Positions 1 to 50,926 of a stretch of 64,000 bases of DNA are shown here, in pieces. Source of the DNA: an uncultured virus (IMG/VR IMGVR_UViG_3300050821_024078) (lineage: Duplodnaviria > Heunggongvirae > Uroviricota > Caudoviricetes). The DNA is taken from IMG/VR virus record IMGVR_UViG_3300050821_024078; one strand, 5' to 3'. Each line of letters begins with the position of its first letter. Position 1 is the stretch's first letter. A program made the position numbers and the translations under genes. The notes under the pieces were generated by a model. That model ran no database searches and was not told the DNA's origin. It saw nothing but the letters and a program-made list of their open reading frames with translations.

Positions 1-933
1 ATGGAAATCGAAAAAATATTAATTACTGATACAGCAGAAATTTTAGATATTGCTGATAAAATATTTCCTGAAACTATAGGATTTAATTACGGTTATATTG
101 GTAGTTATTTAAATAAAAAACAAGTCCAAGATATTTCTGTCAAACTTGTCGATAATGAAAAAATTATCGGTTTCTATATTATGAACTCTGCATCATGTCC
201 CTCATTAGTTAAAGAAGCTCGAATATACGGTATTGATCCTATGAAGGGTATTGAGGGAATAGCTCTTGGTATAATTCCAGAATATAGAGGAACCGGTTTA
301 GGAAAACGTTTAATAATGTATCCTTATGCTATGACAGATTTTGATTACATATGGGGTAAACATTTTACACATCTGAATAATATGAAAGAATGGGCCAAAA
401 GAAGAGTTGTGATTGATGAAGGTTCTATATTCTTGTCTATAACAGCTTTAAGACATACAAATATGGGAACCATGCCGATGTTCAAGCATTATCAACAAAC
501 CGAAGGGTGGAATTGTGGGCCAACAGCTCTTTTAATAGCTTATAAACCCATGTTGAATTATAAGTCTACTACTATTGATGAAATATCTAGTCTTTGTGGT
601 GCTGATAATATTACCGGTACTACTGATGTAAGAATGAAAGCTGGGTTAGATGCTCTTGATATAAAATACTTACAAAGCTCTGAATTAAATAATAAAAATG
701 CTTTACACTGGTTAAAATATCATTTGAATGAATCTGATGTTTTTCTTCTTAGAGGTCTTGTTAAAGGTGTCAAACACTGGGTGGTTGTAACTAATTACGA
801 TAAAAGAAATAAAGTATTCCGTATACTTGATCCATGGCTTGGTGATTATGAACTAGATGGTACCGGATTATTGGAAATATGGCAACCAAGGAATTTTGAT
901 GGATTTATTTTGTTCAAAGAAAATTATATTTAG
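1..933 (+). CDS. GNAT acetyltransferase fused to a C39-like cysteine peptidase domain
   Basis: GNAT motif A (IPEYRGTGLGKRL); C39-like YQQTEGWNCGPTAL ... KHWVVV ... ILDPW; starts at the window edge so the start is uncertain. Confidence 0.7.
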   Translation: MEIEKILITDTAEILDIADKIFPETIGFNYGYIGSYLNKKQVQDISVKLVDNEKIIGFYIMNSASCPSLVKEARIYGIDPMKGIEGIALGIIPEYRGTGLGKRLIMYPYAMTDFDYIWGKHFTHLNNMKEWAKRRVVIDEGSIFLSITALRHTNMGTMPMFKHYQQTEGWNCGPTALLIAYKPMLNYKSTTIDEISSLCGADNITGTTDVRMKAGLDALDIKYLQSSELNNKNALHWLKYHLNESDVFLLRGLVKGVKHWVVVTNYDKRNKVFRILDPWLGDYELDGTGLLEIWQPRNFDGFILFKENYI

Positions 934-934
934 T

Positions 935-1504
935 ATGAAAACATTTACAAAAACTAAAAATAGATATGTTAGTCTTGGTATTTATGCACCAAGTAAAAAT
1001 TCTGAAACTTACGTAAAAGCACTTCCTGGTGATTATGTTTGTAATAAAAGTGGACATTACTACTATTATTTTGGTGAATCTATGTCTTTTAAGAATAGAT
1101 TGGTTGTTAAAAAATCTGTTTTTGAATACTATAAAAATTTACCAAATATTTCCGAAGAGATATTAGATGGTAATTTAGTTTATAAACTTACTAAAGATAC
1201 GTTAATGGTTGAAGTGAAAACATTAGCGAAATTTATTGAAATGTGTAGTATGAGAGCCGGTAACCAGTTGGTTGGTATTGATGATATAATGAAAATTTAT
1301 GAAATACTTTCTGGTAATCCAATGAAGAAAGACTTTATGCTCTTTGATAATGCTGGTGGTAGAAATTTTAATGTGATTGAAGGTGAATCTGCGAAAGCCA
1401 TTCTCGAAATGGTGAAAATAGGTAATCTTAAAGAATCTTACATCTATGCTTATGTTATCAATGGTAAGGAGGTTATTAACAACATTCCTTATTTTATGAA
1501 GTAG
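935..1504 (+). CDS. hypothetical protein
   Basis: ORF; ATG at 935 directly follows the previous stop. Confidence 0.6.
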   Translation: MKTFTKTKNRYVSLGIYAPSKNSETYVKALPGDYVCNKSGHYYYYFGESMSFKNRLVVKKSVFEYYKNLPNISEEILDGNLVYKLTKDTLMVEVKTLAKFIEMCSMRAGNQLVGIDDIMKIYEILSGNPMKKDFMLFDNAGGRNFNVIEGESAKAILEMVKIGNLKESYIYAYVINGKEVINNIPYFMK

Positions 1505-1564: not shown

Positions 1565-2977
1565 ATGGCAATTACAGCGAAACAACTTATAAGTCTTGGG
1601 TATATTACTGGACCTTCTATTGGTATAGCTATGAAGATAGTTGGTTATGCAACATCTGATGGTATGTCGGATGAAGGTATCACTACTATATTGGTAAATA
1701 TACTAACAGAACCAAAAAAATATTTGGAGACTTCTGAAGATCCGTTAATTCTTTCTCTAGCTTCTTCTTTATTACCTAAAGAAATTCCAAATGATACATT
1801 TGAATTAGTGGAACAGAAACCATATAAAATATATGGTGTCGAAAATATTGAACAAGGTGCATTGGATCAGATGAATATCGCTATGCGACTACCTATAACT
1901 GTTGCTGGTGCTGTAATGCCTGATTCACATTTAGGTTATTCTCTTCCAATTGGTGGTGTGCTTGCGACAAATAACGTAGTATCTCCGGCCTCAATAGGAA
2001 ACGATGTTTCGTGTATGATGAAACTAACCATTTACGATATTAAACCGTCTTTTTTAACAGGTCAAGTTGATAAGTTAAAAAATTCTCTTCTTGCTTGTAC
2101 AAATTTTGGTACTGGTGGAGAATTAGAAAAACCTGTAGATGATGAAGTTTTGGAAAATAGGGCTTTTTCTGAAATACCGCTTCTAAAAAGTTTACATAAT
2201 AAAGCTGTGCGTCAGCTATCAAGCAGCGGAAATGGTAACCATTTTGTCGAAATTGGTGTAGTTAATATTACAGATATATCCAATGAATTCGGGTTACCAA
2301 TTGGTGAATATGTGGGAATTCTTTCACATTCCGGATCAAGAGGTTTAGGAGCAAATATAGCTAAATATTATACAAAATTAGCCATGGAAAAATGTAAACT
2401 TCCTAAGGAGGCTAAAAGTTTAGCTTGGTTAGATTTGAATAAGCAAGAAGGTCAGGAATATTGGATTTCAATGCTTCTTGCTGGTGATTATGCAACAGCT
2501 TGTCACGCACATATCCATAAAAGACTTTCTAAATATATGGGTTGGAAAGAAGTAGGTAGTACCGAAAATCGACATAATTTCGCCTGGAAAGAACAACATA
2601 ATGGTCAAGAAGTAATCGTACACCGCAAAGGGGCGACTCCTGCGGGTAAAGGTGTTCTTGGAATCATACCAGGATCTATGGCTACTCCAGCTTATATTGT
2701 AAGAGGTAAAGGTGAACCAGAATCTTTAAATTCAGCTTCTCATGGTGCAGGTCGGTTAATGTCAAGAACTGCTGCTAAAAATAGTATTACAATGTCTTCT
2801 TTAAGAAAATTGTTAAAGGAGGAAGGTGTAGAGTTAATTGGTAGTGGTGTTGATGAGGCCCCTGGTGCATATAAAGATATTAACAAGGTGATGGGTTATC
2901 AAACTGATCTTGTTGATATTCTTGGTACATTTCATCCAAAAGTGGTTAGGATGTCTGAAGAAAAAGGTGATAATTAA
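1565..2977 (+). CDS. rtcB: RtcB-family RNA 2',3'-cyclic phosphate ligase
   Basis: MPDSHLGYSLPIGG, GNDVSC, GNHFVE, HSGSRG, HRKGA, SHGAGR, DEAPGAYKDI motifs. Confidence 0.95.
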   Translation: MAITAKQLISLGYITGPSIGIAMKIVGYATSDGMSDEGITTILVNILTEPKKYLETSEDPLILSLASSLLPKEIPNDTFELVEQKPYKIYGVENIEQGALDQMNIAMRLPITVAGAVMPDSHLGYSLPIGGVLATNNVVSPASIGNDVSCMMKLTIYDIKPSFLTGQVDKLKNSLLACTNFGTGGELEKPVDDEVLENRAFSEIPLLKSLHNKAVRQLSSSGNGNHFVEIGVVNITDISNEFGLPIGEYVGILSHSGSRGLGANIAKYYTKLAMEKCKLPKEAKSLAWLDLNKQEGQEYWISMLLAGDYATACHAHIHKRLSKYMGWKEVGSTENRHNFAWKEQHNGQEVIVHRKGATPAGKGVLGIIPGSMATPAYIVRGKGEPESLNSASHGAGRLMSRTAAKNSITMSSLRKLLKEEGVELIGSGVDEAPGAYKDINKVMGYQTDLVDILGTFHPKVVRMSEEKGDN

Positions 2978-3342: not shown

Positions 3343-3421
3343 AAATAAAATTAGGAAATTTCAAAAACAGAAGTTACCTTTGTGATATATAAAGTATATA
3401 AGAACACAAATAATAAAAACA

Positions 3422-3508
3422 ATGCTTAGTTCAATAAAAAATAATAGCTTTAATTTTAATAAGAATTTTAACAAATTCTTAGCAGGAAAGCTATTAGGTA
3501 GAAATTGA
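3422..3508 (+). CDS. putative leader peptide (28 aa, MLSSIKNNSFNFNKNFNKFLAGKLLGRN, UGA stop)
   Basis: ATG after an A-rich tract, downstream of promoter-like motifs (3375-3398) and upstream of a terminator hairpin. Confidence 0.45.
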   Translation: MLSSIKNNSFNFNKNFNKFLAGKLLGRN

Positions 3509-3531
3509 GATAAGTAATAAAGATATAACTC

Positions 3532-3575
3532 AAAACCCTGGTCGCTTTTCAAAAGCTTCCGGGGTTTTTTGTTTT
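3532..3575 (+). terminator. intrinsic terminator / putative attenuator upstream of the tRNA cluster
   Basis: AAAACCCTGG...CCGGGGTTTT stem with inner GCTTTT/AAAAGC and a U tail. Confidence 0.7.
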
Positions 3576-3582
3576 AATACAA

Positions 3583-3784
3583 TATCCGATGGTGAAATAG
3601 GCAGACATACCCTCCCGTCTCGAGGGTGACGAGTAAATTAAACTGGTAAAGTTTGATAAGCTGACAAACTGGAATTGAAATAGACACAATTAAAATAAAA
3701 GGGGTTGACCACCAAGTCTGGCCAGGCGTAAATTTTGATTGATAGTTGAACAGCGTCATGGAGGTTCGAACCCTTCTCGGATAG
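3583..3784 (+). ncRNA. tRNA-like RNA (GUC anticodon-like loop) with a 132-nt variable-arm insertion
   Basis: acceptor TATCCGA/TCGGATA, D arm GGTGAAATAGGCAGACA, stem CCCTC/GAGGG around CCGTCTC, T arm GGAGG-TTCGAAC-CCTTC; insert closed by TGACG/CGTCA. Confidence 0.75.
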
Positions 3785-3795
3785 CAATAAAATAT

Positions 3796-3869
3796 GGGAC
3801 TGTAGCTCAGTTGGTAGAGCGACGGACTGAAAATCCGTGACAGCACCGGTTCAAATCCGGTTGGTCCCA
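3796..3869 (+). tRNA. tRNA-Phe (GAA)
   Basis: cloverleaf; ACGGA-CTGAAAA-TCCGT; no encoded CCA. Confidence 0.93.
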
Positions 3870-3876
3870 CAAAAAT

Positions 3877-3950
3877 GCGATCTTAGCTCAGATGAATAGA
3901 GCATTCGTCTTTTAAACGAAGGGTCAGCGGTTTGAATCCGCTAGGTCGCA
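3877..3950 (+). tRNA. tRNA-Lys (TTT)
   Basis: cloverleaf; TTCGT-CTTTTAA-ACGAA; D loop lacks GG and T loop is TTTGAAT (slightly atypical); no encoded CCA. Confidence 0.85.
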
Positions 3951-3977
3951 CTAAAACCCTTTATTTGTAAGGGTTAT

Positions 3978-4049
3978 GGACGCTTAGCTGAGAAGGATTA
4001 GCAAAAAGCTGTTAACTTTTAGAGGTTGGTTCGATACCAACAGCGTCCG
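3978..4049 (+). tRNA. tRNA-Asn (GTT)
   Basis: cloverleaf; AAAAG-CTGTTAA-CTTTT; no encoded CCA. Confidence 0.88.
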
Positions 4050-4114
4050 CAATAATTTTTACTATTTTTTAGCTCAAATACTGTATGAGCACACAATAAT
4101 TTCATATATAGATT

Positions 4115-8714: not shown

Positions 8715-9389
8715 TTAATGTAATAGTTCAACTTTTCCACGTTCAATAAATTTAAATTTGGTTTGTTTACCGGTAGTATGATCTATTACTAAATCATCCT
8801 TTACTCTGTAGGTCCTTCTTTTGTTCCCTCTTTCACCATTCCCTATTTGATTATTTCTGGTTGAACAAACCTCTTTGTTTATTTTTTCCTCATGAAGATC
8901 TCTTAATCTTTTTTCAAGTATGGTCCAGGCCTCTAATTCATTTTTAGGTTGATCTCTACCATCTATTCTAACTGATATCCCTGTAGGTTTATGTGTTAGT
9001 ACAACGCAAGAATTAACTTTGTTCTTATTTTGACCTCCAGGTCCGGAACCTCTGGTATAAACTCTATTAACTTCAGATCTATCTAATACAAAAGTATCAA
9101 TTACAGGATCCATAACAGCAACTGTAATACTGCTAGTATGAGTTCGTCCTTTTCTTTCTGTTGGTGGAGTACGTTGAAAGCGGTGATTACCGGTTTCGTT
9201 GTTGAAAAATTGCTTTACATCATTACCTTGTATTCATAATGAGATAAGTCCCTCTCTTCACTGGAGGATTTTTTGTGAAAAATTGTGATTGGTGCATGTT
9301 TTAATGTAAATAGCTGCCATATCCTGGATAAGTAGCTTTGCATCGGTACCACCTTCACCGATTCTTAATTCTAAATGTATGGTTTCCAT
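8715..9389 (-). CDS. RF1-like peptide chain release factor lacking domain 1, with two in-frame UGA codons (9260-9258 and 9236-9234)
   Basis: one frame gives LELRIGEGG...ILQ*REGLISL*IQG...ETGNHRFQRTPPTERKGRTHTSSITVAVM...GSGPGGQNKNK...RTY. Confidence 0.85.
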
Positions 9390-10323: not shown

Positions 10324-10869
10324 ATGTACTCAGATACCTCACATAATAAACTTGGTTTGTTCCTTGGTCACAAGGATATAGATATTACTAAGTTCAATGT
10401 TATAAAGAGCACACCCAAAGATTTTATATCTGTGAGTTCTGTACCACCAGTTTCTATTTTTATCGAAGTTGGTATACTTGGTGCTAGTCATTATGTTAAA
10501 TTTAAACATAATCAAGATGTTTTTTGTGAAGTGTTTTCTTGTGCACCTATTGTTGAACAAGGAAGGTATTATTCTATAAAAAATCTTCTAAAACAAAAAG
10601 AAACCATTTACGAAAATATATTTGAAAATGATTTGTATACTTTCAACGCTGATGTTGTTTTTCTTGATGAGAATAAAGAAAAATATAATTCTTTTTTAAT
10701 TCCTGAATCACAAAAGTTAGTTTTATCTCATGTATTCCCAGGGCCAGCAACTTCTGTTTATAAAGCATACACTGTTATTAAATTGTCTGGGTTAACTATT
10801 GAAACTATGCATGTTTATCCTGAAGAAAATATTGTTGTTTTTACTAAATCTAACATTTCTACTCTATAA
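10324..10869 (+). CDS. DUF2617-like protein
   Basis: VGILGASHYV, EVFSC, ETMHVYPEE; neighbours DUF350 and SpeE-like genes. Confidence 0.6.
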   Translation: MYSDTSHNKLGLFLGHKDIDITKFNVIKSTPKDFISVSSVPPVSIFIEVGILGASHYVKFKHNQDVFCEVFSCAPIVEQGRYYSIKNLLKQKETIYENIFENDLYTFNADVVFLDENKEKYNSFLIPESQKLVLSHVFPGPATSVYKAYTVIKLSGLTIETMHVYPEENIVVFTKSNISTL

Positions 10870-10873
10870 CATC

Positions 10874-12460
10874 ATGCGATATACTTTAATTTTCTTGTTA
10901 TTAGTAATTCTTATCTCTTGTAATCCGATACCGGATAGCTTGAAGATTAAGTCTACAAATTTAATAACTACTCTTGATAATACAGAAAAGTCTATTGAGG
11001 CAAACGAAATACAATTCAAATATTTTTTAGAAGGTAATATATTTCTAAGACGTGACGAAGGTAAAATTAAATGTGAAATGATACTTGGTAAAATTCTTAT
11101 TCAGGAGAAGTTAAAAAGTAATTTTACCAAGGCTAGGGAAACTCTTAAGACTTGCTACACAAATAAATTAAAAATTCAAGAACTTATCAATGATAACGAT
11201 AATAAAAAAGCGTCTCAATTAGAATCTGAAATTGCTGAACTTGAAGCTAAGCTCGCTCTGATTTATGAATTAATTCGTATTCCTATGACCAGAGGAATGT
11301 TTTTTATTGATATTTACAGAGATTATGAAACGTTTAAGAAAACTAATGATTCTTTAATGACTCAATTATCGGATTCGTTAAGATCGGTAAGTAGATATGT
11401 AAAAATTACTAGTATAAAATATTCCGCTAAAAAAGAATCTTTATCTAAAGAGCTTTTACAAATTGAATTGAACTTAAAAATGAATAAAACTATACGAGAT
11501 TCATTTCTAGTCCAGTATAATTATAGAAAAAATGATAAGCTTACAGGATATTTTGATCTTAAAAAGTTTGGTGATTCGTACCAATTGTTTTATAAGAATA
11601 GACAGTATATTTTATCCTGTATGTCTCAGTTAAAAAGTAAATTAGCTGAACTTGATTTATCTTACACTAAAATTCTCGATGATACAGATGCTGATTTTTA
11701 TGTTACTATAGCAAGGACCTCTTGGGATGAGTCTTCTGATTATGGTGAACAAGATTATACTTATAAACGATTAGAAGTAAGCGAATCGGTATTTGAGTAT
11801 ATTGATCAACTCGATGATAATGCTATTATTGCTGAATATACAACATGGAGTGCTGGTTTGACTACTCATATTTCTGATTCTATATGGTCTTCATTAAAAA
11901 TAGATCCTAAAGAAGGTTGGTTGAGTAGTTTACATGATCGTTCAGAATTTTGGGTACAGGCCTCAGATGTTGTATATTATCACAAGTATATGATTGAGAA
12001 GAATGGTAAGTTAGATAGTACTGATTATATTCCTGTCAGTGAGGCTGATTATTATAAGTATGAAGATGCTGATGGTTTAGCTATATTTTCTAAAACAACA
12101 GGTAAATTTAACAGTGAGGCTGATACAATACCGGCTATACCAGGAATATCTCATGTAGGTAATAATCAATACGGTGAATGGAGAGATTCTACATCAAATC
12201 AACGGAGATCTGCTGGTGTTGGAGCTTATTGGTTCTTCTATAGGCCTTATATGTATTATAATATATGGGGAGGAACGCATACATATTCTAATTATAACAC
12301 ATACTCATCAAGTTACAGAAATCACACACCTTATTATGGTAGTGTTGGTAGAGAACAACATTATCGAAATTATAGTAGTAGAAGAGGTCATACTTCTCAA
12401 AGTTCTTTCCGAAACGGTAGTAGCTATCGTGGAGGAGGTGCCGGTGGTGGCGGTAAATAG
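10874..12460 (+). CDS. lipoprotein with coiled coil and Tyr/Ser/Arg/Gly-rich C-terminal tail
   Basis: lipobox LISC; VGNNQYGEWR...YWFFY...SYRGGGAGGGGK. Confidence 0.7.
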   Translation: MRYTLIFLLLVILISCNPIPDSLKIKSTNLITTLDNTEKSIEANEIQFKYFLEGNIFLRRDEGKIKCEMILGKILIQEKLKSNFTKARETLKTCYTNKLKIQELINDNDNKKASQLESEIAELEAKLALIYELIRIPMTRGMFFIDIYRDYETFKKTNDSLMTQLSDSLRSVSRYVKITSIKYSAKKESLSKELLQIELNLKMNKTIRDSFLVQYNYRKNDKLTGYFDLKKFGDSYQLFYKNRQYILSCMSQLKSKLAELDLSYTKILDDTDADFYVTIARTSWDESSDYGEQDYTYKRLEVSESVFEYIDQLDDNAIIAEYTTWSAGLTTHISDSIWSSLKIDPKEGWLSSLHDRSEFWVQASDVVYYHKYMIEKNGKLDSTDYIPVSEADYYKYEDADGLAIFSKTTGKFNSEADTIPAIPGISHVGNNQYGEWRDSTSNQRRSAGVGAYWFFYRPYMYYNIWGGTHTYSNYNTYSSSYRNHTPYYGSVGREQHYRNYSSRRGHTSQSSFRNGSSYRGGGAGGGGK

Positions 12461-12497
12461 TAAAATAAAAGTTAAACCCTTAAATTAAAATAAACAA

Positions 12498-13328
12498 ATG
12501 GAAAATTTCGCACATTTATTAGAATCTCTTGTATATGCCCTGATAGGTCTGGGTGTATTCTTTATCATCAAGTTTTCAAGAAAAATATTACTGTATAAGG
12601 AATCTGAGGATGAACAACTAGCAAAAAACAATCTTGCTGTATCGTTGAATTTGTCTGGTCTTTATATCGCTCTTGGTATTTCTATACTGGCAGCATTATC
12701 TGGTGAGTCACATACTTTTATAAAGGATGTAACATCTGTTTTTATTTATTCTCTAGTAGGTATAGTTATGATTACTATATTTTCAAAGGTTCAATTTTAT
12801 CTTATAATCGGTAATAAAATTAAAGACTATCTGAAAGAAGGTAATATTGCAGCAGGTATTATAGCCTTTGGTACATATGTTAATATTGGTATAGTTACAC
12901 TTGGAAGTTTCTTTGGTGAAGGAACTATAGCTTCAGCGGTTGTATTCTTTATATTAGGTCAGGCTGCATTGATTGCTACAACATATGCCTGGGAGAAGAT
13001 AAACAAATTTGATGTTACAAATTTTATTACTGGTAATAGTATAGCCGGAGCCGTTCTTTATACATTAACTAAAATAAGTCTTGCTATAATTATTTATGCT
13101 TCTATTCGAGGAAATTTTACTGCTTGGATTCCAGACTTAATACATTTCACTTATAGTTTAGTTGCTGGTGTTGTATTTATAATGATTTTATTTAATAAGA
13201 TTCTTGATAAATTTGTTCTTCCGGAAACTGATACTAAAACAGAAATAGAACAAGGGAACGTTGCTTCAGCATTCTTAATTGGCTCTATTAAAATAGCATT
13301 AGCTCTAATTATCTCTGGTATTATATAA
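12498..13328 (+). CDS. DUF350-family membrane protein (tandem domains)
   Basis: multiple TM helices; repeated NNLAVS/GNIAAG/GNVASA motifs. Confidence 0.75.
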   Translation: MENFAHLLESLVYALIGLGVFFIIKFSRKILLYKESEDEQLAKNNLAVSLNLSGLYIALGISILAALSGESHTFIKDVTSVFIYSLVGIVMITIFSKVQFYLIIGNKIKDYLKEGNIAAGIIAFGTYVNIGIVTLGSFFGEGTIASAVVFFILGQAALIATTYAWEKINKFDVTNFITGNSIAGAVLYTLTKISLAIIIYASIRGNFTAWIPDLIHFTYSLVAGVVFIMILFNKILDKFVLPETDTKTEIEQGNVASAFLIGSIKIALALIISGII

Positions 13329-13329
13329 C

Positions 13330-14007
13330 ATGAAAGAAATAATTCTTGATAATATCAAATACAAGTTGGTTCCTGTTAGTCAGGAATCAGCTTTAATTCC
13401 TTTTGAAAAGGGTGACTGGGTTTGTAGTGATAACAATGAAATTAAATATACGAATAGATTCGGTGATATTGTTCCTATACCTAATGAGATAGATTACGTT
13501 TATACAAAAAACAATGCTGTTTATGTTAGTTATACAAAAGTATCCTCTCATGATTGGCATAGAATAGATGCTATAAGAAAAGCTTCTCATGATGAAATAT
13601 TAGACAGGCTTATACATAGACATTGTAATTTCAAAGAAGGTGATACGGTTTGGTTTAAAGATAAAGGTGTAAGAAAAGAATGTGGTACACGGAAATACTT
13701 AGTCTTAGGGTTTGAATTATGTGTAATTGGAGATATCATAATTGATGATTATATAACTGTTCATCTTAAATATAGTTGTAAACCGGGCTCAGAAACATCT
13801 TATCTTAGTTGTGAGTTAACCAAATATGATGAATCTGTTAAGTCTGCCACTGATAATAATCAAAAAAGAACAATTATCTTAGATGGTATTAAATATAAAT
13901 GGCTCTACTTCATAAATTGGTGCAAATGCTACACAATAGCTATCTGTTTAGATGAAATTAAATACCTAATAATCATTTTATTATATATAATCTGCACCAA
14001 CTTATGA
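13330..14007 (+). CDS. hypothetical protein whose C-terminus is altered by a MITE insertion
   Basis: removing 13901-14024 restores ...IILDGIKYKLEEIQ*. Confidence 0.65.
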   Translation: MKEIILDNIKYKLVPVSQESALIPFEKGDWVCSDNNEIKYTNRFGDIVPIPNEIDYVYTKNNAVYVSYTKVSSHDWHRIDAIRKASHDEILDRLIHRHCNFKEGDTVWFKDKGVRKECGTRKYLVLGFELCVIGDIIIDDYITVHLKYSCKPGSETSYLSCELTKYDESVKSATDNNQKRTIILDGIKYKWLYFINWCKCYTIAICLDEIKYLIIILLYIICTNL

Positions 14008-14016
14008 AGTAGAGCC
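13901..14016. mobile_element. 116-bp MITE, IS1595-family-like
   Basis: 27-bp terminal inverted repeats (GGCTCTACTTCATAAATTGGTGCAAAT, 2 mismatches); 8-bp direct repeat ATATAAAT at 13893-13900 and 14017-14024. Confidence 0.85.
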
Positions 14017-14043
14017 ATATAAATTAGAAGAAATTCAATAATT

Positions 14044-14547
14044 ATGTACACATTCTATATCATATCCATAATTGGTATTTTATGCACCATTATCCACTGT
14101 TATAAATCAAAGAAGTTCAGAGGGGAAGGTTTATTCTTTACTTTTGTTGTTGGACCTGTTATGCTTGCAGCATTTAGTCTCGGGCTTACTGAAATTGATG
14201 ACTCTTATAAAGTTGATAGTTTATATGTAAAAGTATCAAAATTAAAAAGTCTTGAAGATGATAAAACATCATTTGTACTTGGTATGAGTGATTTTTCTTC
14301 AGATCCTTTGTATTATTACTATTATCAGCAACCTAATGGTGGATATAAACTAGGTTCTAAAAAATATCACTCTGTTGTATTATTTGAAGCTAATGGTGCT
14401 ATATTAGTAGAAAGATTTCATAAAAAATTTTACAAAAAAAGTAAATGGATCTGGGCTAATCCGGCGATTGAAAATATAGAGTTAGATACTTACATTTACT
14501 TACCAACAAACACGATAAAGCGTACTTATAACATTGATAGTAAATGA
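14044..14547 (+). CDS. hypothetical membrane protein
   Basis: two N-terminal hydrophobic segments. Confidence 0.6.
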   Translation: MYTFYIISIIGILCTIIHCYKSKKFRGEGLFFTFVVGPVMLAAFSLGLTEIDDSYKVDSLYVKVSKLKSLEDDKTSFVLGMSDFSSDPLYYYYYQQPNGGYKLGSKKYHSVVLFEANGAILVERFHKKFYKKSKWIWANPAIENIELDTYIYLPTNTIKRTYNIDSK

Positions 14548-16187
14548 AAAAATTAACTCTTCCAACAATACTTCTGGGAATATCAATGTTCTTTACCGGA
14601 GCATCATGCTTTGTTGTTCAGAATATACTTAGTATAACAGCTAGTTCCATCTTAGGTAATACATTCGTTCAATACGGTGTCACTATATCTCTTATGCTTG
14701 GTGCTATGGGTATAGGTGGTACATTACAGCGTTATATTAGTAGTGATAATATTCTTGCTAAGTATCTTTTTCTTGAAATGCTTCTGATACTTCTTACCGG
14801 ATTTGCTCTTATTGGTTTATATGCTGCTTATGCTTTAATGCCGGAACATTTCTTATTGATTCAATATCTTTGGATAATTTTGGTTGGTCTTTTTATAGGA
14901 TTTGAGATACCAATAATTTCCAGGATAAACGAAACATACCAACCTAATATTAAAGATAATCTGGCCTCTATTATGACTATGGATTATGTTGGTAGTATGA
15001 TAGGAGGTTTACTTTGGACATTTGTTTTTCTAGGTGAAATAGAGCTTGGTTTGGGTGCATTCTTAACAGCTGGTCTAAACCTAATTGTTTCGTTTGCTGT
15101 ATATTTCTACTTTATGTATAAACAAACCGGTAAACTATTTGATAAGGTCTTTGCTGCTGTAATAATTACTAGTGTTTTACTTGTTATAGGTTTTTATAAT
15201 TCTAAAGCCTGGGAGGTAGATCTTCAACAAAAATTATATGATGAAAAAATAGTATTTAATAAAATAACAAAATATCAAATACTTACTATGACGCATGATA
15301 GTGATATTAATGATTATAGACTTTATATAAATGGAAATTTACAATTTTCTTCAATAGATGAAAATATTTATCATGAACATTTAGTACACCCTATTCTGAG
15401 TTCTTCTAAAAAAAGAGATTATGTGTTAATTCTTGGTGGAGGTGATGGGTTCGCTTTGAGAGAGGTTTTAAAATATCCTGATGTGAAGTATGTTAATCTT
15501 GTAGATCTAGATCCTGAGATGATAAAGATTTCGAGTACTGGTATAATCGCTGAATTGAATCATAATTCTTTCAAAGATGCTCGTGTAGAGACAGATTCAC
15601 CGGAAATGTTAAAGAAGGGTCTTAAGAATATTTATATTGATGATTCTGATACAAGTAAACCTAAGATAAAGCTGGCTAGAGTAGAAATATTTAATATTGA
15701 TGCCTTCAATTTTATCAAAGATACTGATAAAAAGTATGATGCTGTCATAATAGACTTTCCTGACCCTTCTCATGTGGAAGTGAATAAATTATATACGAAG
15801 GAATTTTTTATACATTTACAAGGATTACTTAATCTAGGAGCAAATATTGTTGTACAATCAACTTCACCCTATCATGCGAAGGAGGCTTATCTTTGTATAG
15901 ACAGAACAATGAAATCTGTAGGTTTTAAAACTTTGTTGTATCATCATAATGTTCCCTCTTTCGGGGATTGGGGCTGGATAATTGGTTATACAGATAGTTC
16001 ACTGTTAAAAAATATTGATACTATTCAACAATATCAGGTAAAAACTACTTATCTGGAACCTAGTCTGATGAGATCTTCTATGTTTTTTGGTAAAAGTATT
16101 TTAGATACAAAAGAGGTTGCTGTAAATACTATTCTTAATCCGGTTCTTTTGAAATATTATACAAAGGAATCCTGGAAAGTTGAGTAA
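14544..16187 (+). CDS. speE: membrane-bound polyamine aminopropyltransferase (spermidine synthase-like)
   Basis: about 7 TM segments, then LYINGNLQFS, YHEHLVHP, LILGGGDG, VDLDP, IIDFPDP, VPSFGDWG. Confidence 0.88.
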   Translation: MKKLTLPTILLGISMFFTGASCFVVQNILSITASSILGNTFVQYGVTISLMLGAMGIGGTLQRYISSDNILAKYLFLEMLLILLTGFALIGLYAAYALMPEHFLLIQYLWIILVGLFIGFEIPIISRINETYQPNIKDNLASIMTMDYVGSMIGGLLWTFVFLGEIELGLGAFLTAGLNLIVSFAVYFYFMYKQTGKLFDKVFAAVIITSVLLVIGFYNSKAWEVDLQQKLYDEKIVFNKITKYQILTMTHDSDINDYRLYINGNLQFSSIDENIYHEHLVHPILSSSKKRDYVLILGGGDGFALREVLKYPDVKYVNLVDLDPEMIKISSTGIIAELNHNSFKDARVETDSPEMLKKGLKNIYIDDSDTSKPKIKLARVEIFNIDAFNFIKDTDKKYDAVIIDFPDPSHVEVNKLYTKEFFIHLQGLLNLGANIVVQSTSPYHAKEAYLCIDRTMKSVGFKTLLYHHNVPSFGDWGWIIGYTDSSLLKNIDTIQQYQVKTTYLEPSLMRSSMFFGKSILDTKEVAVNTILNPVLLKYYTKESWKVE

Positions 16188-22843: not shown

Positions 22844-24274
22844 ATGAAAATATTTTTAACTTCAACTTTGCCTTATAATAATTCTCAAATTCATGTAGGA
22901 ATGGGTTTAGAGATAGTTCAGGCTGATTCAATAACCAGATATTTAAAACAAAAAGGTTATGATGTGTTTTTTAATACTGGTTTAGATGAAGAGGGATTAA
23001 AGATTTATCAGAAAGCAAAATCTTTAGGAAAGGATACTCAAACTTTTTTGGATGAAATGGCTGAAACATGGGTTGAAGCTTTTAAAAAATTATTGATAGA
23101 TTATGATGTTTTATATAGGACATCAAATCATCCTAAACATGCTGATGGTGTTCAAAAATTCTGGAAGTTATGCGAGGATAAAGGATACATTTATAAGAAA
23201 TTATATAAAGGAAAATATTGTTCTGGATGTGAATCATACAAAACTGACCAAGATCTTATTGAAGGGAAATGTTTGGATCATTTTACTCTTGATATAAATG
23301 AAGTAGAAGAAGAAAATTATTTTTTTCGTCTAACTTCTTTTAAGGAAGCATTATTTGAAGATATTAATAATTCTAAAATTAAGTTACAACCACAATCAAA
23401 AATGACAGAACTTATATCTTTGATTGAAAATTGTAGTGATGTATCTATATCAAGACTTAGAAGCCAATTACCCTGCGGTGTTGAGGTTCCTGATGATCCA
23501 GAACATACTGTTTATGTTTGGTTTAGTGCCTTGTGTAATTATTTTATAAGTGCTGGTTGGCCAGATGATAATTTTAAAGATAATTGGCAAAATGTTATAC
23601 AGTTATTTGGTAATGATAATTTAAGATTTCAAGGTGTTTTATTTCAGGCTATGCTTAAAGCTGCTGATATTCCTTGTACATCAAAGCTTTTAATGCATGG
23701 TACTGTATTAGATGAAAAAGGACATAAAATGTCTAAAACTGTAGGTAATGTAGTTGATCCAATTATAGAGATTGAAAAATATGGTTTGAGAGCTGTTAGA
23801 TACTATATTTTGGCTGGTTTAAATACTTATCAAAATAGTCCGTGGTCAAGTAGTGATTTAATTACTTTACATAATTCGGATCTGGCTAATGATTATGGTA
23901 ATCTCCTCTCCAGGGTAATTCATCTTTTAGATAAACAAGATATTGTAATTAATGAATCTATAGTACAAGAATCATTTAAGAAAAACATTTTAAATATTGT
24001 TGATGAATCTACTGAGTTATTTGATAATTTTGAGTTAAAACAAGGTTTACAAAAATTGAATCAAGTATTCAAATACTCAAACAAATATATCACACAAGAA
24101 GAGCCATGGAAGAATAAAGAAACGGCTCCAGTAGTTGTAAATAATTTGGTATGGGTTTTCAGAAGAGTAGCTGAATTATATGAGCCTTTCATTCCAGGTG
24201 TTTGGGTTGATACTTGTGTATGGATAGCACAGAAAAACAAAGAACCTTTATTTCCTAGGATACAAACATTATAA
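22844..24274 (+). CDS. metG: methionyl-tRNA synthetase (divergent)
   Basis: HVGM (HIGH), TGLDEEG, YCSGCESY, EEENYFFRL, VYVWF, KMSKT, LANDYGNL, EPWK. Confidence 0.88.
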   Translation: MKIFLTSTLPYNNSQIHVGMGLEIVQADSITRYLKQKGYDVFFNTGLDEEGLKIYQKAKSLGKDTQTFLDEMAETWVEAFKKLLIDYDVLYRTSNHPKHADGVQKFWKLCEDKGYIYKKLYKGKYCSGCESYKTDQDLIEGKCLDHFTLDINEVEEENYFFRLTSFKEALFEDINNSKIKLQPQSKMTELISLIENCSDVSISRLRSQLPCGVEVPDDPEHTVYVWFSALCNYFISAGWPDDNFKDNWQNVIQLFGNDNLRFQGVLFQAMLKAADIPCTSKLLMHGTVLDEKGHKMSKTVGNVVDPIIEIEKYGLRAVRYYILAGLNTYQNSPWSSSDLITLHNSDLANDYGNLLSRVIHLLDKQDIVINESIVQESFKKNILNIVDESTELFDNFELKQGLQKLNQVFKYSNKYITQEEPWKNKETAPVVVNNLVWVFRRVAELYEPFIPGVWVDTCVWIAQKNKEPLFPRIQTL

Positions 24275-31919: not shown

Positions 31920-33470
31920 TTAATTCCCCACCACTGATTTAAAAGCATCAAGAATACGTTCCTTCAAATCTTCTTTACTAAGTGTATCAAAAATGTTATG
32001 TAACTCAGGACCATGTTCTTCACCTGTTACTATATATCGCAAAGGTTTTAAAACTTGTCCATTTTTTAGACCTTTTGTTTTTATTAAAGCAAAAAGTTTA
32101 TCCTTAATTTGAAATCCGTTATCTTCGGAATCAATGATATTAGGAAATTCTAATATTACTGCTACAATTTCTTCTGGAACTAAATTAACAGTGTCTTGTA
32201 TCATTACTGGTTTTATGAAGAAGAAATCTATATTTTCCAAAAGCTCTCTTTCGAAAGAAGATCTTTCATAAGCCATTTCAAATACTTTTCTCGCTTTATT
32301 ACTAAGAGCCGGCTCAATATCTCTATCAATCAAAGATTTATTTAAAGTAATAAAGAATCTTTCGTAAAGTTCTTCTTTATCTTGAGCTTTAAAATAAATA
32401 TTCTGGAAATGCTTCAGTTTTACCGGATCGAATAAACAGCCTGATTTGTTTACTTTCTCTAGGCTGAATTTTTCAATAATTTCTTCTCTACACATAATCT
32501 CTTTGGTGTCTCCAGGACTCCATCCCATTAAGGCCAAGAAGTTGAACAAAGTATCTGGATTATAACCAACATCTTTAAACCCGGTTACAGATTCTTCAAT
32601 GCCAGTATCTGGATTTGTATAAGTATAGCTTAGAGGGAATATGGGAAACCCTAATGTATTACCGTCCCTTTTACTTAGTTTACCATTAGGACCCATTAGA
32701 AGAGGTAAATGAGCAAATTCTGGCATACTATCTGACCATCCGAGATATTTGTAGAGTAATATATGAAAAGGTGCTGATGGTGCCCACTCTTGGCCCCTTA
32801 TAACATGAGTTATCCCCATCAAATGATCATCAACGACATTTGCTAAGTGATAGGCTGGCATACCATCGGATTTCATCAATACTTTATCATCGATATCTTT
32901 GGATTCAACCATAATCCAACCTAGAATAAGATCATGAAAGCGAATTTCTTCTTTTTCCGGAACTTTGAGTCTTATAACATAAGGATCCTTCGCTTCTAGT
33001 TTTCTTGTAACTTCACTGGCTGGTAATGTGAGAGAATTCATCATTACCTTCCTTGTGTTACAGTTATATCCTTCTTTTGATTTCATGAGTTCTTGTCTCT
33101 TTCTCATCAAATTAAGATCGCTTTCTGTATCAAAAGCATAATATGCATAACCAGCATCAAGAAGTTGTTGTACATACTCTTTGTAAATACCAAGTTCCTT
33201 TCTTGCTGACTGTCTGTATGGTCCACAATTACCAGGATTAAGTGGATGTTCATCAGGTTCTATACCCAACCAGTATAAAGATCTCATAATATAATCTTCT
33301 GCACCTGGAACGAAACGTTTCTGATCGGTATCTTCTATTCTAAGAATGAATTTACCACCATGTTTTTTAGCGAACAAATAATTGAATAAGGCTGTCCTGA
33401 GACCTCCGCAATGTTGAGATCCAGTTGGGCTGGGTGCGTATCTTACACGAATAATCTTTGTGTCTTTCAT
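31920..33470 (-). CDS. gltX: glutamyl-tRNA synthetase
   Basis: RYAPSPTG, LRIEDTDQ, GPYRQS, YHLANVVDDHLMGITHVIRGQEW, KLSKR. Confidence 0.95.
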   Translation of the reverse strand: MKDTKIIRVRYAPSPTGSQHCGGLRTALFNYLFAKKHGGKFILRIEDTDQKRFVPGAEDYIMRSLYWLGIEPDEHPLNPGNCGPYRQSARKELGIYKEYVQQLLDAGYAYYAFDTESDLNLMRKRQELMKSKEGYNCNTRKVMMNSLTLPASEVTRKLEAKDPYVIRLKVPEKEEIRFHDLILGWIMVESKDIDDKVLMKSDGMPAYHLANVVDDHLMGITHVIRGQEWAPSAPFHILLYKYLGWSDSMPEFAHLPLLMGPNGKLSKRDGNTLGFPIFPLSYTYTNPDTGIEESVTGFKDVGYNPDTLFNFLALMGWSPGDTKEIMCREEIIEKFSLEKVNKSGCLFDPVKLKHFQNIYFKAQDKEELYERFFITLNKSLIDRDIEPALSNKARKVFEMAYERSSFERELLENIDFFFIKPVMIQDTVNLVPEEIVAVILEFPNIIDSEDNGFQIKDKLFALIKTKGLKNGQVLKPLRYIVTGEEHGPELHNIFDTLSKEDLKERILDAFKSVVGN

Positions 33471-41456: not shown

Positions 41457-41467
41457 CGGTTCTTTTG

Positions 41468-41867
41468 TGGAGCTGTCGGGGATCGAACCCGAGTGTTTGG
41501 TCAGCGAGTATACATCTTACTACAAGTTTATTTGATTCTGAATTATAGACATTTTGAAATAAAGAATCAACAAAAAATTTCTAGTGTCTTTTAATCAATA
41601 TTTTAAGAACTTGCTGCAACTTAGTTGCGTTGTTCTCCCGGAATTAATCAATGGACCGGTTGCGTGCTTAAGAGTTGACTCCTGTATAATTGAGATTGAC
41701 TAAGCAGCCATTTCCATCTCAACAGAAGCAGGAAACAATTCAGCGAGAACTGAATCCTGAAGGGCTTTTTTATTGCCGATTATTGTTTGATAAGACATTT
41801 AATGGGGTCTTAACAGCCCATACTTGCAAATATACACAGTAGCAGCCAGTCTATGCCGGTCAGCCCC
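41468..41867 (-). ncRNA. ssrA: tmRNA; tag GNKKALQDSVLAELFPASVEMEMAA at 41777-41700
   Basis: 5' GGGGCTGACCGGCATAGAC; 3' GGGTTCGATCCCCGACAGCTCCA; tag ORF ends AA*. Confidence 0.93.
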
Positions 41868-44818: not shown

Positions 44819-46243
44819 ATGAACTTAAAAAGCATTATAGAGAAAATACCAGTGATTATGCAGCTGGCTGAATACGTTCAAAAGGAAAACATACAAGCTT
44901 ATGTTGTGGGTGGTTTTGTGCGTGATTCTATCTTGGAAAAACAATCCAAAGATATTGATATAGTTTGTATTGGTTCCGGATTAGAACTTGCTGAAGGTTT
45001 CGCTAAATATATTGGTCAGACCGAAGGTGTAGAATACTTCAAGAATTTTGGTACAGCACATTTTATGAGTGATGATGTTGAATTGGAATTTGTGGGAGCC
45101 AGAAAAGAATCATATGATAGAGGTTCAAGAAAACCCATTGTTGAGGATGGTACACTAGAAGATGACCTTAATCGTCGTGATCTGACATTTAATGCTATGG
45201 CTATTTCCTTAAGTGCTGATACATTTGGTGATTTAATTGATATGTTTGATGGTTTATCAGATCTGAAGAACGGTATTATAAGAACACCACTAGATCCTGA
45301 TATAACATTTTCAGATGATCCTTTAAGAATGTTGAGAGCTGTGAGATTTTATTCCAGGTTTAGTTTAACTATCCATGATGAAACTTTAGCATCTATAATT
45401 AAAAATCGTAGCAGACTTGAAATTATTTCTCAACAAAGGATTCATGATGAGCTGAACAAAATATTACTAACAAAGAAACCGAGTATAGGTTTTTATATGT
45501 TGGATCAATGTGGATTACTTGAAATGATTATTCCTGAACTCACAGCTCTTAAAGGTGTAACAAGAGTTAACGATAAAGGTCACAAAGATAATTTCAAACA
45601 TACCCTACAAGTACTGGATCAGGCTGCTGAAGTAAGTGACAATCTTTGGTTTAGATGGGCTGCACTTCTCCATGATGTAGGTAAAGGTCCTACAAAGAGA
45701 CTACTTGATAATGGATGGTCTTTTCATGGTCACGAAGATGTTGGGTTTGGCATGGTTCGAGAAATATTCAAAAGATTATGTTTACCGCTTAGTGAAAAAC
45801 TTATCTATATTCAAACAATAACAAAATACCATGGTAAACCGCAACAACTAGTTGAAGAAGGTGTGACAGATTCAGCTATACGCCGGTTATGTGTAAACGT
45901 TGGAAATACCCTTGATGATCTTTTACTATTTTGTAAATGCGATATTACTACTGCTAGAGAAGATAAAAAATTAAAGTATGTCCAAGAGATAGAAGACCTT
46001 CGAATTAAAATTGAAGCTGTTCGTGAAAGAGACAATATGCTCAATTTTAAAGTTCCTGTAGAAGGTGGTGATATAATGGCGGAATATAAATTAAAGCCGT
46101 GCGAGCTTGTTGGTGTGATTAAAAAAGCTATAAAGGAAGCAATACTTGAAGGTGTCATTCCTAATGATCGGGAAGCAGCTTTAGAATTTATGCGAAGTAA
46201 TTATGAAAAAATAAAAGAAGAGCTAGAAAACAGAGTAGATTAG
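44819..46243 (+). CDS. cca: CCA-adding tRNA nucleotidyltransferase with HD domain
   Basis: VGGFVRD, KDIDI, RRDLTFNA, DDPLRMLRAVRF, LLHDVGK. Confidence 0.92.
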   Translation: MNLKSIIEKIPVIMQLAEYVQKENIQAYVVGGFVRDSILEKQSKDIDIVCIGSGLELAEGFAKYIGQTEGVEYFKNFGTAHFMSDDVELEFVGARKESYDRGSRKPIVEDGTLEDDLNRRDLTFNAMAISLSADTFGDLIDMFDGLSDLKNGIIRTPLDPDITFSDDPLRMLRAVRFYSRFSLTIHDETLASIIKNRSRLEIISQQRIHDELNKILLTKKPSIGFYMLDQCGLLEMIIPELTALKGVTRVNDKGHKDNFKHTLQVLDQAAEVSDNLWFRWAALLHDVGKGPTKRLLDNGWSFHGHEDVGFGMVREIFKRLCLPLSEKLIYIQTITKYHGKPQQLVEEGVTDSAIRRLCVNVGNTLDDLLLFCKCDITTAREDKKLKYVQEIEDLRIKIEAVRERDNMLNFKVPVEGGDIMAEYKLKPCELVGVIKKAIKEAILEGVIPNDREAALEFMRSNYEKIKEELENRVD

Positions 46244-49610: not shown

Positions 49611-49703
49611 ATCCATGTATAATACAGAAATTTTTAAAGAAAAAGCATTCAAAATCCATGTATAATACAGAAATTTTTAAAGAAAAAGCATTCAAAATCC
49701 ATG
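49611..49703 (+). repeat. 43-bp tandem duplication over the start of an endonuclease gene
   Basis: ATCCATGTATAATACAGAAATTTTTAAAGAAAAAGCATTCAAA twice, then ATCCATG. Confidence 0.9.
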
Positions 49704-50926
49704 GTGATAAATATGATTATTCAATGGTTAATTACATAAATTCTAAAACTAGTGTTGAAATTTTTTGTAAAAAACATAATATTTTCTTTGAACAAAAACC
49801 AATATATCATTTAAGAGGTGCTTTATGTAAAAAATGTGGTTACGATAAACAAAAATCAACAACATCAGATTTTATAATAAAGGCAAGAAAAGTTCATGGT
49901 GACATTTATGATTATTCATTAGTTAATTATTATGATACTTTAACTAAAGTTAAAATTGTATGTAAAGAACATGGTGAATTCGAACAAAAACCACTAGGAC
50001 ATTTATATGGACAGGGATGTGCAAAATGTTTTCACGATACAATAAGATTATCAAAAGAAGAATGTATAATAAATTCTAAAAAAGTACACGGAGAAAAATA
50101 TGATTATTCATTAGTCGAGTATATTGATAATCTTACCAAAATTAAAATAATATGTCCAGAACATGGTATATTCGAACAACAACCATCAAATCACATGGAA
50201 GGTAATGGTTGTATCAAATGTAGACATCAAAGCCGAAGAAACAACTCATATATCAAAAAATGTAATGAAAAATTTAACAATAAATATGATTACTCTTTAG
50301 TTGATTATGTTAATAATAATACTAGAGTTGATATTATTTGTCCTGAACATGGAATATTTAAACAATCTATGAAGAGTCATTTAAAACATGATGGTTGTCC
50401 TTTTTGTTCTGGTAAAAAAATGAATACTGAATTTTTTATTTTAAATTCTAGTAAAAAACATAATAATTATTTTGATTACTCATTAGTTGAATATACTGGA
50501 GCATTTAAGAAGGTTAAAATTAAATGTCCTGAACATGGTTTATTCGAACAAATGCCTTCCACACATTTATTTGGAGCTGGTTGTCCTGTATGTAAATCTT
50601 CCAAAGGCGAAAAATCTATAATTTCTTTTTTGAATGAAAATAATATAGAATATAAACATCAGTATGCATTCGAAAAATGTAAAAATATTAATGTATTATT
50701 CTTTGATTTTTATATACCAGATAGAAATATGTGTATTGAATATAACGGTATGCAACATTATAAAAAAATAGAATATTTTGGTGGTGATAAAGGTTTCAAA
50801 ATTACTAAAAAAAGAGATAATATAAAAAAAGCTTTTTGTAAAAAAAATAAAATTTCATTAAAAATAATAACTTATAAAGATAATATTTTAGAAAAATTAA
50901 ATAAAATATTCAAAAGCAACATTTAA
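49658..50926 (+). CDS. putative homing endonuclease: about 5 repeats (KYDYSLVEY...ICPEHGxFEQ...GCxxC) plus a C-terminal PD-(D/E)xK/Vsr-like domain
   Basis: repeats visible; SKGE...FDFYIP...IEYNGMQHY...RDNIK. Confidence 0.82.
   Translation: MYNTEIFKEKAFKIHGDKYDYSMVNYINSKTSVEIFCKKHNIFFEQKPIYHLRGALCKKCGYDKQKSTTSDFIIKARKVHGDIYDYSLVNYYDTLTKVKIVCKEHGEFEQKPLGHLYGQGCAKCFHDTIRLSKEECIINSKKVHGEKYDYSLVEYIDNLTKIKIICPEHGIFEQQPSNHMEGNGCIKCRHQSRRNNSYIKKCNEKFNNKYDYSLVDYVNNNTRVDIICPEHGIFKQSMKSHLKHDGCPFCSGKKMNTEFFILNSSKKHNNYFDYSLVEYTGAFKKVKIKCPEHGLFEQMPSTHLFGAGCPVCKSSKGEKSIISFLNENNIEYKHQYAFEKCKNINVLFFDFYIPDRNMCIEYNGMQHYKKIEYFGGDKGFKITKKRDNIKKAFCKKNKISLKIITYKDNILEKLNKIFKSNI

Follow-up and report, generated by a model that had tools for sequence, protein, structure and literature searches.

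The window, a 64,000-nucleotide stretch of DNA from an uncultured virus, carries at 3583..3784 on its plus strand a tRNA-like RNA that, as judged from its sequence, belongs to a widespread and apparently undescribed RNA family of the Bacteroidota and their large viruses. We consider it likely that this family is linked in some way to GatCAB and asparagine metabolism, and we lean towards the more specific reading that the RNA may serve tRNA-dependent asparagine synthesis as a dedicated carrier of the amino acid and take no part in decoding. The basis for a carrier role is a conserved and structured family, the combination of AspRS identity bases with a U1-A72 end, and a genomic tie to an AsnC-like regulator and to gatB.

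A family of structured RNAs built on a tRNA body

The RNA gene, delimited by direct reading and by a covariance model, extends from U1 to G73 with no encoded CCA; the discriminator is G3784 and the next DNA letters are C-A-A. The original prediction had described intact acceptor, D and T arms, a Leu-like class II D arm, an anticodon loop without U33 or a purine at position 37, and a TGACG/CGTCA helix closing 3627-3758, and all of these features can be read directly from the window. The acceptor stem is a 7-bp helix between UAUCCGA (3583..3589) and UCGGAUA (3777-3783), the first pair of which is U1-A72, the GatCAB determinant, and the second A2-U71 in place of the G2-C71 usual in the family. 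The D arm (3590..3609) has a 3-bp stem and a Leu-type loop with an extra A at position 20a, and the T arm (3760-3776), the 3' strand of the acceptor stem and discriminator G73 together occupy 3760..3784. Within the anticodon arm (3610..3626), the stem CCCUC/GAGGG closes the loop CC-GUC-UC at 3615-3621, so that GUC lies at 3617-3619, C38 at 3621, and C33 and U37 flank the triplet. The variable-arm domain (3627..3758) is closed by UGACG/CGUCA (3627-3631/3754-3758), a helix that homologues keep with compensatory changes. It includes an extra hairpin seen only in the window copy (3650..3670, from the predicted fold), a near-invariant family hairpin GG(G)G-UUGA-CC-A-CC with a bulged A (3701..3713), and a self-complementary stretch (3716..3727) whose perfect palindrome, CUGGCCAG at 3718-3725, is a candidate dimerisation site. 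The length of 132 nt given originally is correct, but what had been called an insert is a conserved domain of the family, usually 72-102 nt long and enlarged here by the extra hairpin.

Neither ARAGORN nor Rfam made a call at 3583-3784. Rfam likewise had no match, to an intron or otherwise, for the window, in line with the earlier statement that the domain is too short for a group I or II intron, and none for 15 homologous loci; the family is apparently absent from Rfam, and what appears to be new is a putative variant of tRNA-dependent amidation on an undescribed RNA family. A blastn comparison of the window with named phages and plasmids returned nothing meaningful, and the open literature held no description of the RNA, most subscription journals and bioRxiv supplements lying outside the scope of that search. 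The sole exact metagenome match (L582) is identical to the window over 6 kb and probably not independent. Because the folding energy of the whole RNA is no better than that of shuffles (z -0.76) and is uninformative by itself, the case against chance rests on homologues.

These homologues are numerous. A pattern for the anticodon arm matched at least 120 viral stretches, and among the matches listed 99 parsed as full RNAs, 80 of them distinct. A second pattern, blind to the anticodon arm, matched at least 119 viral and at least 120 genome stretches; among the matches listed, the RNA could be parsed in 66 of the viral stretches (58 distinct) and in 18 of the genome stretches, the rest being mostly chance. 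The named genome matches are Bacteroidota, including Pedobacter, Chitinophaga, Cyclobacteriaceae, Cytophagaceae, Aquirufa and others. An alignment of 35 sequences, chosen for typical length and less than 92% identity out of 128 distinct ones, was built on a consensus structure set by hand: 97.6% of the cells pair, versus 42-55% in slid controls, and 26 of the 38 pairs change on both sides. The acceptor/T composition of the family is 7/5, with covariation, and the D stem has 3 bp. A covariance model made without the window copy finds 3583-3784 as its only match in the 64 kb (73.8 bits, E 4e-18), whereas ordinary tRNA-Leu genes reach about 56 bits with the family model. A decayed tRNA, another candidate, is made very improbable by the conserved covarying family and by this 73.8-bit match to a model of 35 other sequences.

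The layout of the variable domain is a closing helix, an A-rich internal loop, a second helix and the near-invariant GGR-UWGA-CCAC hairpin, whose pairs never vary, so that the invariant hairpin at 3701..3713 is without covariation support. The domain measures 72-102 nt in most members and 24-48 nt in some, and it is absent from a 76-nt member in genome G233. Two or three tandem or nearby copies with differing variable domains occur at L363, L372/L380, L377/L381 and L551/L556/L561 and in several class-sample genomes.

Part of the stretch at a Chitinophaga locus is present in 20 runs, of which four RNA runs were examined (X1, X6, X7 and X11). In the soil run X7, depth is 1536-1657 on those contigs that are confined to the RNA versus 22-33 on flanking contigs, and in the pure-culture run X1 the summed depth over the RNA exceeds 100,000 versus 150-650, although these figures come from contigs of other strains and cannot rank genes. 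Contigs from X6 and X7, which belong to two studies, end at G73/C74 and then continue into adapter, and one of them has an extra C at a position that is T in the Chitinophaga DNA, which is what CCA addition would produce; X11 gave partial coverage, with one flat contig and no peak on the RNA. These observations hint that the bacterial homologue is an abundant RNA with a tRNA-like 3' end. Together with the covarying closing helix, its appearance in RNA libraries supports the earlier proposal of a tRNA-mimic non-coding RNA.

The original prediction had also placed the RNA at the head of a tRNA cluster about 600 bp past rtcB. The measured distance from the rtcB stop (1565..2977, plus strand, assigned by Pfam) is 606 bp, and tRNA-Phe follows 11 bp downstream, then tRNA-Lys and tRNA-Asn (3796..4050, plus strand). 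It had further suggested a precursor spliced by an enzyme, and one can picture an intron-bearing tRNA-Asp that is spliced and ligated by RtcB, or a relic of such a tRNA; ARAGORN does name the short members L003 and L070 tRNA-Asp. We nevertheless regard this explanation as very improbable. Covariation runs throughout the variable domain, which is structured and conserved and yet shrinks or vanishes in some members, and contigs covering the homologue in the four RNA runs show no joints. Moreover, the loop is unsuited to decoding either way, and removal of the domain would not repair it; the spliced-precursor reading is unsupported. The suggested link to Y RNAs and RtcB fares no better: RtcB has no match in the flanks of 113 homologous loci (80 viral, among the matches listed, and 33 bacterial; 1.5-4 kb a side), and no TROVE protein is found among 72 cluster representatives of 165 neighbouring ORFs, taken from short flanks. 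Relatives of the window RtcB are at two distant loci, both without the RNA, and rtcB, a neighbour in this genome only, is probably not part of the RNA system.

Putative determinants of charging and amidation

U33 and a purine at position 37 are near-universal in translating tRNAs and are needed for decoding. Among the matches listed for the pattern blind to the anticodon arm, which include 76 distinct members, position 33 is free (U in 54, C in 17, A in 5) and position 37 is U in 69, C in 6 and A in 1, that is, a purine in one of 76. The same members all have U1-A72, G2-C71 and G73 (76/76 each), and nearly all have G34, U35 and C36 (75/76 each, the exception being a mis-parsed 8-nt loop) and C38 (74/76). 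In the loop-selected set, again among the matches listed, U1-A72 occurs in 77 of 80 and A1-U72 in the other 3. The relevant part of PMC9976931 gives G73, G34, U35, C36 and C38 as the aspartate identity elements, and that of PMC1635274 states that U1-A72 governs amidation by GatCAB and that C36 costs merely two-fold. The family joins what reads as the aspartate identity set with the GatCAB determinant and dispenses with the loop features of a decoding tRNA.

Should these features mean what they do in tRNAs, a pathway can be drawn. CCA would first be added to the 3' end of the RNA, and the host's single AspRS would then load it with Asp; the GUC/C38/G73 set would let a discriminating AspRS charge the RNA, which would be impossible for that enzyme on tRNA-Asn. 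GatCAB would recognise U1-A72 and amidate Asp to Asn on the RNA, and the altered loop and bulky variable domain would exclude it from the ribosome, thereby avoiding the misreading of Asp codons. Hydrolysis would free Asn for use by AsnRS, and AsnC would switch the RNA gene on under Asn shortage.

Several observations complicate such a pathway. In published work, an extra nucleotide at 20a cuts amidation about ten-fold (PMC1635274), the docking site of the GatB tail is the D loop, close to the variable loop (PMC2811023), and E. coli AspRS hardly charges yeast tRNA-Asp, which has GUC and a U1-A72 end (PMC3367201). The window RNA lacks the short D loop without 20a that is a trait of GatCAB substrates, and insertions are found in 42 of 70 distinct phage D arms, which counts against a carrier role given the effects of 20a and the D loop on GatCAB. 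A comparison of 57 of 60 GatB proteins (3 were removed by a filter) found that 1 of 488 columns differs by more than 0.5 and that no residue tracks the RNA, and the GatB tree gave no sign of co-adaptation to it. No enzyme that releases Asn from the RNA was found, which likewise counts against a carrier.

Four bacterial genomes depart from G at position 34: the triplet is UUC in both copies of G139, AUC in three copies of G333 and in G233, and CUC in G420, three of these genomes having been examined because the pattern had missed them. This variation weakens a strict AspRS identity. It also makes the RNA almost surely non-decoding, because such changes would rewrite the code if it decoded. Tolerance of A, C or U at this position would suit a different role, in which the RNA would hold one AspRS subunit together with GatCAB and so build a transamidosome for ordinary tRNA-Asn, its own charging being unimportant. 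Scaffold tRNAs occur in the Thermus transamidosome complex, and the large conserved domain has an internal loop that resembles a protein contact. A scaffold would explain the genomic links to asnC and gatB equally well, and host tRNA-Asn keeps U1-A72 in the named species (PMC4206432). We consider this role unlikely all the same, since the invariance of G73, U1-A72 and C38 points to catalysis at the 3' end, the variable domain is missing from the 76-nt member, and G34 is fixed in phages, where a non-G34 pattern had 1 chance match on viral contigs versus at least 120 with G34.

Genomic ties to gatB and an AsnC-like regulator

In a phylum sample of 151 genomes, the RNA was found in 16 and gatB in 126, including all 16; AsnA (4 genomes) and AsnB (18) were present in none of the RNA-positive genomes at the thresholds used. 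In a class sample of 301 Bacteroidia, the RNA was found in 55 of 231 genomes with gatB and in none of 70 without it. The latter sample had 58 pattern-positive genomes, of which G163, G176 and G299 (G176 being without gatB) were discarded as chance by eye, and its counts include the unpublished genomes G228, with gatB, and G291, with GlnRS and without gatB, neither of which matches the RNA; no conclusion hinges on these two by themselves. GatCAB is thus in the same cell in every RNA-positive bacterial genome (gatB in 55/55 and 16/16), and the RNA was never found alongside AsnA or a true AsnB in the genomes tested. Absences in these samples mean "not found", and Fisher values are too small, because many of the genomes are incomplete and related. 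The genome pattern forced G or U at position 34 and so under-counts the RNA, and the phylum-wide model search scored 20 candidates per genome.

An AspRS tree of 100 of 149 proteins, in which the wrong-frame sequences of G010 and G040 were disregarded, places 15 of the 16 RNA-positive genomes in one clade of 37, within which the RNA is present in 15 of 16 genomes with gatB and in none of 21 without. The 15 RNA-positive genomes of this clade have AsnRS in all cases and GlnRS in 14, which therefore leaves GatCAB without an obvious charging job. Their main AspRS we take, by its signature, to be discriminating; the literature offered no confirmation of that signature. Bacteroidetes with AsnRS, GlnRS, GatCAB and one AspRS have been noted before in PMC4206432, where the ordinary route was assumed.

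The association is sharpest among class-sample genomes with GlnRS, where the RNA pattern occurs in 32 of 44 with gatB and in none of 67 without. Of the 12 that the pattern missed, G333 has three copies by the model, G261 has none, and 10 have a divergent GatB, which in all five cases tested is a fusion to a second AspRS with an RDHG motif. Among class genomes with GlnRS and an ordinary GatB, the RNA is therefore present in 33 of 34; the exception, G261, counts against a carrier role. At the fusion loci L546-L550 (G185, G301, G219, G248 and G275), the gene after gatA is an uninterrupted frame of about 1,110 codons for the GatB-AspRS fusion with RDHG, and no gatC was seen within the 1.5-kb flanks, a one-chain transamidosome in RNA-less Bacteroidia. 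We presume RDHG in these fusions to be the mark of a non-discriminating AspRS. That such fusions replace the RNA would fit tethering by a scaffold as well as carrying.

Genomes with gatB but without GlnRS are the harder case for a carrier, because the pattern is present in 23 of 187 and 164 have no match. Twelve of these misses were rechecked with the model, the 3'-end pattern or both: a copy emerged only in G420 and G233, G290 has AsnB, G158, G169 and G179 have no RNA by the 3'-end pattern, and G413, G383, G370, G323, G160 and G103 have neither the RNA nor AsnB above the cut-off (AsnA was looked for in G103 only). The scarcity of the RNA in this group, which leaves these last six with no evident source of Asn, is the main gap in the case for a carrier. 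Also counting against a carrier are the asnB-type genes given in PMC4206432 for Chitinophaga pinensis (3) and Marivirga (2), with none for Pedobacter heparinus.

In bacteria, the RNA gene stands outside tRNA arrays and the downstream genes vary. A divergent AsnC-like gene faces it in 10 of 11 loci with long flanks and in 11 of the 16 RNA-positive genomes of the phylum sample, the regulator lying elsewhere in the other five. The best NCBIfam match of this regulator is AsnC at 157-180 bits, below the cut-off of 227, and the next family reaches at most 85. In E. coli, the target of asnC is the facing gene asnA, which it activates under Asn shortage. The same AsnC-like regulator faces asnB in the RNA-less genomes G111, G119 and G290, the first two being 2 of the 16 gatB-less genomes with a match, so that the RNA gene takes the chromosomal slot that asnB fills in three RNA-less genomes. 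One genome, G128, has the RNA and asnC, yet no match to AsnRS or GlnRS, which counts against a carrier role.

If the RNA does act as a carrier, it would open a third way of making asparagine, in addition to AsnA/AsnB and to the route through a non-discriminating AspRS, and would explain why GatCAB is retained in Bacteroidota that have AsnRS, GlnRS and a single AspRS. It would also be a metabolic cofactor RNA that is invisible to tRNA and Rfam annotation and yet common in soil and freshwater bacteria and in large phages. Should the carrier step fail, what would be left is an RNA family that is abundant, unannotated and linked to AsnC and GatCAB.

Phage copies and comparison with known systems

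The window appears to be a piece of a large phage genome; it has 30% G+C and genes for RtcB, a tmRNA, a CCA-adding enzyme, MetRS and GluRS. The CCA-adding enzyme (44819..46243, plus strand), whose nearest clusters are mostly Bacteroidota, could mature the 3' end of the RNA. The tmRNA (41465-41867, minus strand) has an unusually long tag peptide of 25 residues, and the synthetases are a MetRS-like protein (22844-24274, plus strand) and a GluRS (31920-33470, minus strand). On the minus strand at 8715-9389 is an RF1-like release-factor gene with a GGQ motif, its single frame broken by two in-frame TGA codons; read through TGA it matches RF1 over 210 residues (E 3e-47, versus 2e-24 for the C-terminal piece), TGA is a rare stop in this genome (5 of 73 ORFs) and Trp is TGG, and the gene may regulate itself by UGA read-through or may be broken. 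Other features are a CRISPR array at 52865-53232 (six identical 36-nt repeats and five spacers of 30-31 nt), with no Cas family in the flanking ORFs scanned and no spacer match among the sequences compared; an RNA 2'-phosphotransferase (54755-55354), an alanine dehydrogenase (58832-59866) and a TelA-like protein (60413-61603), all on the minus strand; a single run of DUF2617, lipoprotein, DUF350 and spermidine-synthase-domain genes (10324-16187, plus strand); and an exact 43-nt tandem duplication (49611-49696) where a homing-endonuclease gene that has internal repeats begins (49658-50926).

Perfect palindromes of at least 6 bases, in 39 different sequences, occur directly 3' of the invariant hairpin in 71 of 82 distinct phage segments, versus a mean of 17 and a maximum of 30 in 1000 shuffled controls. 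At the same site, bacterial copies have one in 6 of 39 (shuffled mean 6.8), and the segment upstream of the hairpin has one in 7 of 78. The window palindrome lies at this family site, with a predicted self-duplex of -25 kcal/mol, and many D-loop insertions of phage copies are also palindromic. The palindromes suggest that phage copies would probably pair into dimers, and a tRNA body with 130 extra nucleotides that dimerises would be a natural scaffold of structural interest. In some phage copies (L005, L123, L124, L156 and others), the D loop contains a hairpin whose 7-nt loop, CUCAGUU or CUCUGUU, looks like another anticodon loop.

Phage-specific palindromes would also suit a regulator or decoy, namely an RNA under AsnC control that would sequester AspRS, GatCAB or a protein that senses tRNA and that in phages would serve as a decoy for tRNA nucleases of the host or a sponge for its enzymes, with avidity raised by dimers. 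The apparently high abundance of the bacterial homologue fits such an RNA, ARAGORN finds a tRNA within 1.5 kb in 54 of 80 viral loci among the matches listed (two of these being the short form itself), and a precedent exists in the Bacillus cereus tRNA-Other mentioned in PMC5389517. We think this rather unlikely, as the chromosomal gene occupies the slot of a biosynthetic enzyme and the short flanks of the homologues hold no recurrent defence or RNA-repair gene.

The neighbours of phage copies raise a further alternative. Among the 22 with a tRNA directly upstream, 16 follow tRNA-Ser (these phages are related and not independent), and in L001 a phage SerRS gene (202-1458, plus strand) stops 7 nt before the RNA; these two observations keep alive the idea that SerRS loads Ser on the RNA, as on an allo-tRNA, for mistranslation or non-ribosomal use. 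G73 with a long variable arm is indeed the serine identity in the parts consulted of PMC9976931 and PMC5389517. A serine carrier is still distinctly improbable, because SerRS ignores the anticodon, yet U35, C36 and C38 are fixed, the first pair is U1-A72 and not G1-C72, one member has no variable arm, and the bacterial context is asnC and gatB.

Upstream of the window RNA is a leader ORF of 28 codons (3422..3508, plus strand), rich in Asn, Phe and Lys, followed by a hairpin and U-run directly 5' of the RNA (3531..3575, plus strand; z -6.3 for 3415-3582). Asn takes 7 of 27 codons (shuffle p 0.005), and Asn, Phe and Lys together take 15 (p 0.0002). The leader (3422-3575) is thus rich in exactly the amino acids of the downstream tRNAs and is a candidate translation-coupled attenuator of the phage tRNA operon, the ORF being the putative attenuator peptide of the RNA-Phe-Lys-Asn cluster and the hairpin its putative terminator. 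A scan for sigma-70 and terminator consensus sequences stayed at chance level and missed this hairpin. The attenuator rests on one case, because among 103 distinct upstream regions the window itself is the only one with such a leader (in two others there was just a hairpin or unrelated ORFs) and no matching codon bias appears in two further tRNA leaders. The phage tRNA-Asn has G1-C72 and should thus be a poor GatCAB substrate, dependent on free Asn. The putative tie of phage copies to Asn consists of sequence conservation and this one leader only.

Taking the carrier proposal to its full extent, a tRNA mimic under AsnC control would replace asparagine synthetase in many Bacteroidota by Asp loading through a discriminating AspRS, amidation by GatCAB and release of free Asn. 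The phage RNA would be a captured, RNA-only auxiliary metabolic gene that keeps Asn supplied from within the tRNA operon via the host's AspRS and GatCAB, its palindrome dimers matched to the dimeric synthetase. We hold this complete scheme only tentatively, at somewhat less than even confidence.

Among known systems, the indirect Asn pathway of non-discriminating AspRS, tRNA-Asn and GatCAB is similar in its U1-A72 and G73, its dependence on gatB and its lack of AsnA and AsnB. It differs in that, here, a separate RNA with an Asp-type non-decoding loop, a Leu-type D arm and a large variable domain would replace tRNA-Asn, the proposed product would be free Asn, and an AsnC-like regulator would be in control. 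With bacterial tRNA-Asp(GUC) the family shares G34, U35, C36, C38, G73 and usually G2-C71, but it has U1-A72 and not G1-C72, no fixed U33 or purine 37, a class II D arm, and a variable domain of 0-130 nt (132 nt in the window) in place of a short variable loop. Allo-tRNAs and polycistronic irregular tRNAs (Mukai et al., PMC5389517) likewise have a long variable arm, G73 and GUC among their common anticodons, but the allo-tRNAs are 8/4 or 9/3 RNAs, unlike the 7/5 family, with a Sec-like D arm, Ser or Ala identity and a distribution in other phyla. The word "Bacteroid" has no match in the supplement of that paper. One "tRNA0" entry there (sheet 2, row 18) shares U1-A72, G73 and the loop CU-GUC-UC with the family, but it is built on a class I body, lacks a variable domain and has no assigned function.

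Like Y RNA and YrlA (RF02553), the family has a tRNA-like module, and rtcB is nearby in the window genome only; it differs in its normal acceptor end and in having no linkage to Ro60 or rtcB in homologues. The best YrlA hit in the window is 16.7 bits (E 1.7) at other coordinates, versus a threshold of 69 bits, and the YrlA model had no match in the 15 homologous loci. GOLLD, ROOL and ARRPOF are self-assembling natural RNAs with palindromic contacts. As in these RNAs, the self-complementary loop of the family changes in sequence and stays a palindrome, whereas the family RNA has no Rfam match, is small and tRNA-based, and has the palindrome enriched only in phage copies. Finally, the staphylococcal cell-wall tRNA-Gly and the B. 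cereus tRNA-Other are non-ribosomal tRNAs that, like the family, keep the tRNA shape for an enzyme and have lost translation features; the family RNA is distinguished from them by a different identity set and by its proposed use in the synthesis of an amino acid.
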